Assembly (NCBI RefSeq): GCF_048403405.1
Contig: NZ_CP183129.1
Length of the DNA: 64,000 nt
Direction: 5' to 3' (one strand)
DNA from: Escherichia coli
GTDB lineage: Bacteria > Pseudomonadota > Gammaproteobacteria > Enterobacterales > Enterobacteriaceae
Shown: piece after piece, positions 98 to 31,503 of the stretch
Layout of the letters: every line of letters starts with the position of its first letter
Position numbering within the stretch: position 1 is the first letter of the stretch
Made by a program: the position numbers and the translations under genes
The notes under the pieces: model-generated
What the model saw: the letters and a program-made list of their open reading frames with translations, nothing else
The model's database searches: none
Told to the model about the DNA's origin: nothing

Positions 98-3001
<2,904 letters not shown>

Positions 3002-3194
3002 TCACAACCCGAAGATGTTTCTTTCGATTCATCATCGTGTTGCGAAAATTTGAGAGACTCACGAACAACTTTCGTTGTTCAGTGTTTCAATTTTCAGCTT
3101 GATCCAGATTTTTAAAGAGCAAATATCTCAAACGTCACCCGAAGATGAGTTTTGAGATATTAAGGCAGGTGACTTTCACTCACAAACCAGCAAG

Positions 3195-3270
3195 TGGCGT
3201 CCCCTAGGGGATTCGAACCCCTGTTACCGCCGTGAAAGGGCGGTGTCCTGGGCCTCTAGACGAAGGGGAC
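3195..3270 (-). tRNA. gltU: tRNA-Glu (UUC) in 16S-23S spacer
   Basis: Reverse complement reads GTCCCCTTCGTCTAGAGGCCCAGGACACCGCCCTTTCACGGCGGTAACAGGGGTTCGAATCCCCTAGGGGACGCCA, the E. coli tRNA-Glu sequence with CCA end. Confidence 0.93.
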
Positions 3271-3355
3271 GTATCAGTCTGCTTCGCAAGACGCCTTGCT
3301 TTTCACTTTCTATCAGACAATCTGTGTGAGCACTGCAAAGAACGCTTCTTTAAGG

Positions 3356-4897
<1,542 letters not shown>

Positions 4898-20160: not shown

Positions 20161-20249
20161 TCGGCTTTTTTAATCCCATACTTTTCCACAGGTAGATCCC
20201 AACGCGTTCACAGCGTACAATACGCCACTCTTAATAAAGGTGGCGGTTT

Positions 20250-20693
20250 ATGGCAGATATCACTCTTATCAGCGGCAGCACCCTCGGCGGTGCCGAATAT
20301 GTGGCAGAACACCTGGCTGAAAAGCTGGAAGAGGCGGGTTTTACCACCGAAACGCTGCACGGTCCGCTGTTGGAAGATTTATCTGCCTCGGGGATCTGGC
20401 TGGTTATCAGCTCAACCCACGGTGCCGGAGATATTCCGGATAACCTTTCTCCTTTCTATGAAGCATTGCAGGAACAGAAGCCCGATCTTTCTGCGGTCCG
20501 CTTTGGCGCTATCGGTATTGGCAGTCGTGAATATGACACCTTTTGTGGGGCTATCGATAAACTCGAGGCAGAACTCAAAAATTCCGGTGCAAAACAGACA
20601 GGCGAAACACTGAAGATCAACATTCTTGATCACGACATCCCGGAAGATCCGGCAGAAGAATGGCTGGGATCGTGGATTAATTTACTCAAATAA
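20250..20693 (+). CDS. mioC: flavodoxin-like FMN-binding protein
   Basis: 147-aa ORF MADITLISGSTLGGAEYVAEHLAEKLEEAGF (flavodoxin fold), immediately adjacent to oriC. Confidence 0.92.
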   Translation: MADITLISGSTLGGAEYVAEHLAEKLEEAGFTTETLHGPLLEDLSASGIWLVISSTHGAGDIPDNLSPFYEALQEQKPDLSAVRFGAIGIGSREYDTFCGAIDKLEAELKNSGAKQTGETLKINILDHDIPEDPAEEWLGSWINLLK

Positions 20694-20704
20694 GTATACA
20701 GATC

Positions 20705-20965
20705 GTGCGATCTACTGTGGATAACTCTGTCAGGAAGCTTGGATCAACCGGTAGTTATCCAAAGAACAACCGTTGTTCAGTTTTTGAGTTGTGTATAACC
20801 CCTCATTCTGATCCCAGCTTATACGGTCCAGGATCACCGATCATTCACAGTTAATGATCCTTTCCAGGTTGTTGATCTTAAAAGCCGGATCCTTGTTATC
20901 CACAGGGCAGTGCGATCCTAATAAGAGATCACAATAGAACAGATCTCTAAATAAATAGATCTTCT
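20705..20965. other. oriC: chromosomal replication origin oriC (DnaA boxes, AT-rich 13-mers, GATC cluster)
   Basis: DnaA 9-mers TGTGGATAA (20715-20723) and TTATCCACA (20897-20905); AT-rich 13-mers GATCTCTAAATAAATAGATCTTCTTTTTAATAC near 20940-20975; many GATC sites; located between mioC and mnmG. Confidence 0.9.
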
Positions 20966-21071
20966 TTTTAATACCCAGGATCCCAGGTCTTTCTCAAGCC
21001 GACAAAGTTGAGTAGAATCCACGGCCCGGGCTTCAATCCATTTTCATACCGCGTTATGCGAGGCAATCACC

Positions 21072-22961
21072 ATGTTTTATCCGGATCCTTTTGACGTCAT
21101 CATCATTGGCGGGGGTCATGCAGGCACCGAGGCCGCGATGGCCGCGGCGCGTATGGGTCAACAGACTCTGCTTTTGACACACAATATCGACACTCTGGGG
21201 CAGATGAGCTGCAACCCGGCGATCGGCGGTATTGGGAAGGGACATCTGGTAAAAGAAGTGGATGCACTCGGCGGTCTGATGGCGAAAGCGATCGATCAGG
21301 CGGGTATCCAGTTTAGGATACTAAACGCAAGCAAGGGACCAGCGGTTCGCGCTACCCGTGCTCAGGCGGATCGTGTGCTCTACCGGCAGGCGGTACGTAC
21401 GGCGCTGGAGAACCAACCGAACCTGATGATCTTCCAGCAGGCGGTTGAAGATCTTATTGTCGAAAACGATCGCGTGGTCGGTGCTGTTACCCAAATGGGA
21501 CTGAAGTTCCGTGCCAAAGCCGTCGTGCTCACCGTTGGGACGTTCCTCGACGGTAAAATTCATATCGGTCTGGATAACTACAGCGGTGGTCGTGCTGGTG
21601 ATCCGCCGTCCATTCCGCTCTCTCGCCGTTTGCGTGAACTGCCGCTGCGCGTTGGTCGTCTGAAAACCGGGACACCGCCGCGTATTGATGCGCGTACTAT
21701 CGACTTCAGCGTGCTGGCGCAACAGCATGGCGATAACCCAATGCCGGTATTCTCGTTTATGGGTAATGCGTCCCAGCATCCACAGCAGGTGCCGTGTTAT
21801 ATCACCCATACCAACGAGAAAACCCATGATGTGATCCGCAGTAACCTCGATCGTAGCCCAATGTATGCAGGGGTGATCGAAGGTGTCGGCCCACGCTACT
21901 GCCCGTCGATCGAAGACAAAGTCATGCGCTTCGCCGACAGAAATCAGCATCAGATCTTCCTTGAACCGGAAGGGCTGACCTCAAACGAAATTTATCCGAA
22001 CGGTATCTCCACCAGCCTGCCGTTCGATGTGCAGATGCAAATCGTCCGCTCCATGCAGGGGATGGAAAACGCGAAGATCGTGCGTCCGGGTTATGCCATT
22101 GAGTATGACTTCTTCGATCCACGCGACCTGAAACCGACGCTGGAGAGCAAGTTTATCCAGGGGCTGTTCTTTGCTGGTCAGATTAACGGCACTACCGGTT
22201 ACGAAGAAGCCGCTGCGCAAGGTTTGCTGGCTGGTCTTAACGCTGCCCGTCTGTCTGCTGACAAAGAAGGTTGGGCTCCGGCGCGTTCTCAGGCGTATCT
22301 CGGCGTACTGGTTGATGACCTGTGCACTTTAGGAACCAAAGAACCGTATCGTATGTTTACTTCGCGCGCAGAATATCGTCTGATGCTGCGCGAAGATAAT
22401 GCGGATCTGCGTTTGACTGAAATCGGTCGTGAACTGGGCCTGGTGGATGACGAACGTTGGGCGCGCTTTAACGAGAAACTTGAGAATATCGAGCGTGAGC
22501 GTCAGCGTCTGAAATCGACCTGGGTAACCCCGTCGGCGGAAGCTGCAGCCGAAGTGAATGCTCACCTGACTGCGCCGCTTTCCCGTGAAGCCAGTGGTGA
22601 AGATCTGCTGCGTCGTCCGGAAATGACTTATGAAAAATTAACCACGCTGACGCCGTTTGCCCCTGCGTTGACAGACGAACAGGCGGCGGAACAGGTTGAG
22701 ATTCAGGTTAAATACGAAGGTTATATCGCGCGCCAGCAAGATGAGATCGAAAAGCAGCTGCGTAACGAGAACACCCTGCTACCAGCGACGCTGGATTACC
22801 GCCAGGTATCCGGTCTTTCTAACGAAGTGATCGCCAAACTTAACGATCACAAACCGGCCTCTATCGGTCAGGCTTCGCGTATTTCTGGCGTCACGCCTGC
22901 GGCCATCTCCATTCTGCTGGTGTGGCTGAAAAAACAGGGTATGCTGCGTCGTAGCGCATAA
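21072..22961 (+). CDS. mnmG: tRNA uridine-5-carboxymethylaminomethyl synthesis enzyme (FAD-binding)
   Basis: 629-aa ORF starting [29 protein letters not shown] (FAD Rossmann motif). Confidence 0.93.
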
Positions 22962-31204: not shown

Positions 31205-31503
31205 CGCGTATTGACCCGTCCTGAAGAGCGTTCACATAGATCCTGCTGATATAAAACCCCCTGTTTTCCCGTTTATTCATTGATCGAAATAAGAGCAAAA
31301 ACATCCACCTGACGCTTAAATGAAGGTACTGCCTTAATTTTCTGCAGACAAAAGGTGTGACGATGGTCGAAAATGGCGCTTTCGTCAGCGGGGATAATCC
31401 GTTATTGAACAATTTATCCTCTGTCCATTTCACGATGAAAAAAATGTAGTTTTTTCAAGGTGAAGCGGTTTAAATTCGTTCTCAAATTACAGTCAGGACG
31501 CGT

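Follow-up and report, generated by a model that had tools for sequence, protein, structure and literature searches.

An intact oriC between mioC and mnmG in an origin-proximal segment of an Escherichia coli chromosome

A 378-bp non-coding interval (20694-21071) was identified between two open reading frames of 147 and 629 amino acids, both on the + strand, in a stretch of 64,000 nucleotides of Escherichia coli DNA (the whole of which is referred to here as the window). The 147-aa frame, mioC, carries this annotation in genomes with 100% identity to the origin sequence, and differs from the K-12 gene (b3742) at 10 nucleotides and 2 amino acids. The product of the 629-aa frame, mnmG, is exactly the K-12 protein (b3741), and the 31 nucleotide differences between the two genes are synonymous. 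The genes asnC, asnA and rsmG also occupy their K-12 positions, and the gene order (rrn-rbs-kup-ravA-viaA-asnA-asnC-mioC / mnmG-rsmG-atp-glmUS) is that of K-12. An earlier examination of the letters of the window (the sequence-only reading) had placed an intact oriC at 20705-20965 with mioC and mnmG as its brackets. Both genes were found where that reading put them, separated by the 378-bp gap, and the proposed span contains the full minimal origin with 11 bp extra on the mioC side and 4 bp on the mnmG side. The genes and signals flanking the origin are as follows.

20182..20190, + strand: DnaA box TTTTCCACA in the mioC promoter region, fitting the TTWTNCACA consensus
20250..20693, + strand: mioC, encoding an FMN-binding flavoprotein, transcribed towards and into oriC
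20991..21018, + strand: promoter-like site (TTCTCA, 16-bp spacer, TAGAAT), detected by consensus scan only, reading from oriC into mnmG
21072..22961, + strand: mnmG (gidA), transcribed away from oriC

The mioC promoter has been reported to contain DnaA boxes and to be repressed by ATP-DnaA (PMC4585315), and the box at 20182-20190 probably corresponds to one of the named boxes published for it. The site at 20991-21018 is a candidate gidA/mnmG promoter and may be the published gid promoter. Transcription of mioC and on the mnmG side would represent the known flanking transcription units.

The window was reverse-complemented and compared base by base with MG1655 (NC_000913.3, 3922500-3928500). 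In the classical numbering the BamHI site GGATCC is position 1 and corresponds to window 20983, so that classical position p equals window 20984-p, and the classical "top" strand is the - strand of the window. The limits of the minimal origin were placed immediately to the left of 13-mer L and immediately to the right of R4 (PMC4585315). The sequences of the IHF, Fis, Rob and H-NS sites, including the 15-mer of the K-12 Fis site, were taken from PMC4285127 (Table 2), and the motifs of the unwinding element were defined according to PMC10380432 and PMC4285127. The following elements were located.

20716..20961, - strand: minimal oriC, from DnaA box R4 to 13-mer L, with 1 substitution relative to K-12
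20692..20711, - strand: Rob (right oriC-binding protein) site ATCGCACGATCTGTATACTT, exact match to the published sequence
20716-20724, - strand: DnaA box R4, TTATCCACA, perfect, high affinity
20728..20769, - strand: right low-affinity DnaA array, sequence as in K-12
20755-20763: DnaA box R3, one mismatch, overlapping C2 and C3
20764..20778: Fis site, a 7+1+7 palindrome between R2 and C3, GAACAACGGTTGTTC here and GAACAACAGTTGTTC in K-12
20790-20798, - strand: DnaA box R2, TTATACACA, one mismatch
20808..20849, + strand: left low-affinity DnaA array, sequence as in K-12, overlapped by the H-NS site
20829-20844: H-NS site, exact match to the published sequence, overlapping the left array
20841-20849: DnaA box R5M, part of the left array
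20865..20877, - strand: IHF-binding core GATCAACAACCTG (IBS1), between R1 and R5M, exact match to the published sequence
20896-20904, + strand: DnaA box R1, TTATCCACA, perfect, high affinity
20918..20973, - strand: duplex-unwinding element, comprising the 13-mers and the AT cluster
20918-20930, - strand: 13-mer R, exact K-12 copy
20933-20945, - strand: 13-mer M, exact K-12 copy
20949-20961, - strand: 13-mer L, exact K-12 copy
20962-20973: AT cluster next to 13-mer L

The recognisable DnaA boxes noted in the sequence-only reading consist of two perfect boxes (R4 and R1), two boxes with one mismatch (R3 and R2) and R5M, all at K-12 spacing. Four boxes with at most one mismatch occur in 261 bp, where the density in the rest of the window predicts about 0.10 (Poisson P ~4e-6). 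Twelve DnaA boxes have been listed for oriC, among which R1 and R4 are perfect to TTATNCACA, and the strong boxes R1, R2 and R4 by which an E. coli-type oriC is defined (PMC5716108) are all present here.

Both low-affinity arrays of the E. coli-type oriC were also found. Their sites are taken to be C1 (20728-20736), I3 (20739-20747), C2 (20750-20758) and C3 (20761-20769) in the right array, and I2 (20808-20816), I1 (20819-20827), tau2 (20830-20838) and R5M (20841-20849) in the left array, with tau1 placed only approximately. At these positions the sites are spaced by 2 bp and show 3 (I1), 4 (I2) and 4 (C3) mismatches to the R-box consensus, which equal the published counts for the same three sites (PMC4585315). 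The positions assigned are therefore corroborated by the spacing, by the mismatch counts and by natural variants that fall in boxes listed as variable (PMC4585315).

The AT-rich 13-mers proved to be three tandem copies on the - strand (20918-20961). The unwinding element contains two AGATCT 6-mers (20941-20946 and 20957-20962) as well as TTGT and TTATT motifs, and the A+T content is 73% over 20918-20976. A loose 13-mer pattern was not enriched across the window (35 matches compared with 27 expected from shuffles), and of these matches only the three in tandem at 20918-20961 carry weight. The density of GATC sites is likewise as the sequence-only reading described it, with 12 sites in 20705-20965 compared with about 1.15-1.2 expected per 261 bp (P ~4e-9), and all 261-bp intervals with at least 7 GATC sites begin within 20449-21221. 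The minimal origin (20716-20961) contains 11 GATC sites, 10 of which lie at or beyond 20810, i.e., in the unwinding element and left half. The published numbers are also 11 in the minimal origin and 10 in the unwinding element and left half (PMC10380432).

The mioC-mnmG gap is 378 bp in both the window and K-12, and 377 positions are identical in an ungapped alignment over the whole intergenic region, with no indels, so that the exact spacing between the 13-mers and the 9-mers is kept. MG1655 oriC shares its locus and length with the window. No base differs in the 13-mers, in the boxes R1, R5M, R2, R3 and R4 or in either low-affinity array, and the IHF core, the sites for Rob and H-NS and all 11 GATC sites are likewise unchanged. 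The sole difference is at window 20771, which corresponds to K-12 3925934 and classical position 213, where K-12 has A and the window has G. The loss of essential DnaA boxes or 13-mers had been named beforehand as the observation that would contradict an intact origin; all DnaA boxes, 13-mers and GATC sites and the IHF core are retained, and this objection does not arise. The intactness of oriC thus stands, with all named elements at K-12 spacing.

The annotation of the origin differs among records. An origin_of_replication feature (oriC) is annotated in NC_000913.3 at 3925744..3925975, between mnmG and mioC. This feature (232 bp) corresponds to window 20730-20961, which cuts C1 and omits R4, and is narrower than the functional minimal origin (245 bp in K-12). 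PGAP-annotated genomes have no feature at all across the origin. An Rfam scan of the window (Rfam has no origin model) gave matches only to rRNA, tRNA, StyR-44 and STnc410.

Of 5,426 complete E. coli genomes, 5,424 carry the origin sequence on the chromosome, typically once (median 1), and no plasmid copies were detected among these genomes. The exact 378-bp allele occurred in 6 of 60 evenly sampled genomes (~10%), for example in strains 120899 and GE3. The non-coding interval diverges from K-12 by 0.26% (1 change), whereas the five flanking genes diverge by 2.0%, which predicts 7.6 changes (P = 0.004). The origin interval is better conserved than its coding neighbours, which indicates purifying selection.

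Eight divergent E. coli origins were aligned in order to list natural variants. The architecture is shared with the other lineages (O157:H7, BL21, IHE3034, strain 20.1 and the strains of a 59-strain survey (PMC4585315)), and the variants seen agree with this survey by Frimodt-Moller et al. (2015). In O157:H7 RV06, the first base of 13-mer R is changed (equivalent to 20930, C to A on the window strand) and one GATC site of the unwinding element is lost, a change that the window does not have; 13-mer R has been reported to vary at its outer positions (PMC4585315). BL21, AR_0119 and strain 20.1 carry an R3/C3 change and IHE3034 carries an I1 change, both of which are absent here. The O26/O111-like strain 20.1 also has a substitution in the IHF core (equivalent to 20866) and a 1-nt deletion between 13-mer R and R1 (equivalent to 20908), neither of which is found in the window. 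The same combination of IHF-core change and deletion has been published for O26:H11 and O111:H- strains (PMC4585315). The spacing between 13-mers and 9-mers has been reported to be critical, which makes a 1-nt change of spacing in the viable 20.1 lineage worthy of note.

Clusters of DnaA boxes also occur at datA, DARS1, DARS2 and the mioC and dnaA promoters (PMC10380432, PMC4585315), and datA and DARS2 have IHF or Fis sites as well. These loci lack the three 13-mers, the dense GATC cluster and the position between mioC and mnmG, and they titrate or recycle DnaA and do not start replication, whereas the element in the window has all of the origin-specific parts.

The orientation of the window is fixed by oriC, as had been claimed: the alignment and the positions of the flanking genes show that its + strand is the reverse complement of the MG1655 numbering. 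The cumulative GC skew, calculated on the scale of the 64-kb window only, is lowest at 21104, some 140 bp away from the unwinding element. The skew switches sign at oriC, with values of -0.033 to -0.065 on the left side and of +0.041 to +0.047 on the right. The genes flanking oriC mostly point outward (rrn, rbs and kup on the - strand to the left; mnmG, rsmG, atp, glmUS, lpf and pst on the + strand to the right). The site also fixes the orientation of the replichores: the + strand carries the sequence of the leading strand to the right of 20961 and that of the lagging strand to its left.

On the basis of its sequence, the segment 20716-20961, together with the AT cluster up to 20973, most probably represents the single chromosomal oriC of this E. 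coli strain at the normal mioC-mnmG locus (probability about 0.98). Lone DnaA boxes with one mismatch (29 matches) and loose 13-mer matches (35) are frequent across the window, and a chance grouping of motifs (DnaA-box-like, AT-rich and GATC) without origin function was therefore considered. The local density is far above this background for both DnaA boxes (P ~4e-6) and GATC sites (~4e-9), and the near-identity to the experimentally defined K-12 origin makes chance irrelevant and the statistics secondary, so that the chance cluster was rejected outright. A silent or redundant copy of oriC (e.g., ectopic or plasmid-derived), with the chromosome initiating elsewhere, is scarcely credible. The site lies in the same native synteny as in K-12, the GC skew switches sign at it, plasmid matches are absent and genomes have a median of one copy; in the rare cases of a second "place", a match had been divided by the start of a record, as in H85. 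Nothing in support of such a copy was found in these comparisons. The reading of the locus as a degenerate origin was rejected along with the ectopic or plasmid copy. The preferred reading, a single native oriC, is an ordinary one: the origin is intact, in its normal context and of a common allele, and it is of a kind already known.

The single difference from K-12 is located in the Fis site. Window 20771 is the central base of GAACAAC-N-GTTGTTC, with G on the classical strand here and A in K-12. The Fis site of the window still matches the consensus GNNYANNNNNTRNNC, in which the central base is N (PMC10380432, PMC4585315), and initiation has been reported to respond slightly or not at all to specific binding of Fis at oriC (PMC10380432). 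The frequencies of the alleles were determined by exact searches with 61-mers (window 20741-20801) in complete E. coli genomes, which gave the following counts.

Haplotype G (the window allele): 1,269 genomes
Haplotype A (the K-12 allele): 1,144 genomes
Haplotype C alone: 896 genomes
Haplotype C with the R3/C3 change: 1,101 genomes
Haplotype C with a change at position 236: 203 genomes

The C allele was present in at least 2,200 genomes in total by exact 61-mers, and about 790 genomes have further haplotypes around the Fis site. As G, A and C are all frequent by these counts, the site is tri-allelic and the window allele is common and natural. The G at 20771 thus occupies a degenerate position of the Fis site, and impairment of the origin is not expected from it. 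In the 59-strain survey the Fis site of oriC was described as completely conserved (PMC4585315), with which the allele counts disagree if the site surveyed is the 15-mer of PMC4285127.

An origin that works with altered regulation was weighed against this reading. The A-to-G change at the Fis centre would then shift Fis occupancy and hence, relative to K-12, the timing or synchrony of initiation at fast growth. The sole difference from K-12 does fall within the published 15-bp Fis site, and this base varies to an unusual degree, each of its three alleles being reasonably frequent. However, the position is the "N" of the consensus, Fis at oriC has been reported with little or no influence on initiation (PMC10380432), and at least 1,269 complete genomes have the same allele as the window, so that altered regulation appears very improbable. 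The alleles show no obvious lineage pattern, since BL21 and K-12 differ, as do the window and the O26/O111-like strain 20.1. That the centre at 20771 is a site of recurrent mutation or a selected polymorphic site is a speculative and unlikely proposition. Because the site is palindromic, each of the G and C alleles is the reverse complement of the other, and template switching at a hairpin, with a "flip" of the centre, would fit this relationship. Allele-dependent adjustment of Fis occupancy and of initiation during fast growth would be another possibility. The three-allele centre of the Fis palindrome is only a mildly interesting by-product of the analysis of an otherwise common oriC allele.

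The near-identity to K-12 allows the mechanism of initiation to be proposed from published work (PMC5716108, PMC10380432, PMC4285127, PMC6158602); firing of the origin, binding of DnaA, IHF and Fis, and methylation would be expected here from sequence identity. DnaA-dependent initiation in vivo would likewise be predicted, since thousands of viable strains with a single copy share this origin. The strong boxes R1, R2 and R4 would be occupied by DnaA throughout the cell cycle. A rise in ATP-DnaA would fill the two opposed low-affinity arrays (R5M-tau2-I1-I2 and C1-I3-C2-C3), and the DNA between R1 and R5M would be bent by IHF. The AT-rich 13-mers M and R, followed by L, would then unwind, and the left DnaA oligomer would hold the T-rich single strand. 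Two DnaB-DnaC complexes would be loaded, from which forks would depart bidirectionally. After firing, SeqA would bind the 11 hemimethylated GATC sites and block re-initiation for part of the cycle. Minor modulation would come from Fis bound between R2 and C3 and from transcription, inward from mioC and outward from mnmG.

Several other features of the window were located relative to the origin, with distances of the accessory blocks measured from 13-mer L and their annotation taken from E. coli MS 69-1, which is 99.99% identical to the window over 26500-64000.

98-4897, - strand: rRNA operon (16S 3356-4897, tRNA-Glu(UUC) 3195-3270, 23S 98-3001), directed away from oriC
35173-40152, + strand: lpf-O113 operon (lpfA-D), long polar fimbria, between glmS and pstS, 14-19 kb from oriC
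45408-52277: low-GC block (0.30-0.33) between phoU and yieH, 24-31 kb from oriC
61822-63987: gene of the ShET2/EspL2 family (type III effector or enterotoxin) between tnaC and mnmE, GC 0.36, 41-43 kb from oriC

The rRNA operon accounts for the markedly negative GC skew over the first 4 kb of the window, and its spacer contains an Rfam match to StyR-44 (3009-3117). A match to the enterobacterial sRNA STnc410 was found on the - strand at 31263-31420 (182.7 bits), in the atpC-glmU intergenic region. The lpf-O113 operon, downstream of glmS, has a GC content of 0.44-0.47; in strain 120899, an IS3 element interrupts the lpf operon, which shares only 89% identity with that of the window. Three genes lie in the block at 45408-52277: espY4, for the T3SS effector EspY4, one for a hypothetical protein of 832 aa and, on the opposite strand, one for a pentapeptide-repeat protein. 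A 24.5-kb query containing this block (33500-58000) was covered to at least 80% in only 410 of the 5,426 genomes.

That DNA close to the origin is present at high gene dosage during rapid growth, as the sequence-only reading remarked, is textbook knowledge. The accessory islands had been described as lying within about 25-40 kb of the origin. Their proximity to oriC was borne out, and the range is only imprecise: the blocks, all to the right of oriC, lie at 14-19, 24-31 and 41-43 kb, and the figure given earlier is approximate.

With a 1-base difference from the textbook K-12 origin, the locus is a useful landmark and no discovery. The oriC described here matters as a landmark only and adds nothing new on the initiation of replication. 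It marks the window as an origin-proximal segment of the E. coli chromosome, and it allows distances from oriC to be taken for the lpf-O113 operon and the two effector-like low-GC blocks on the right side.
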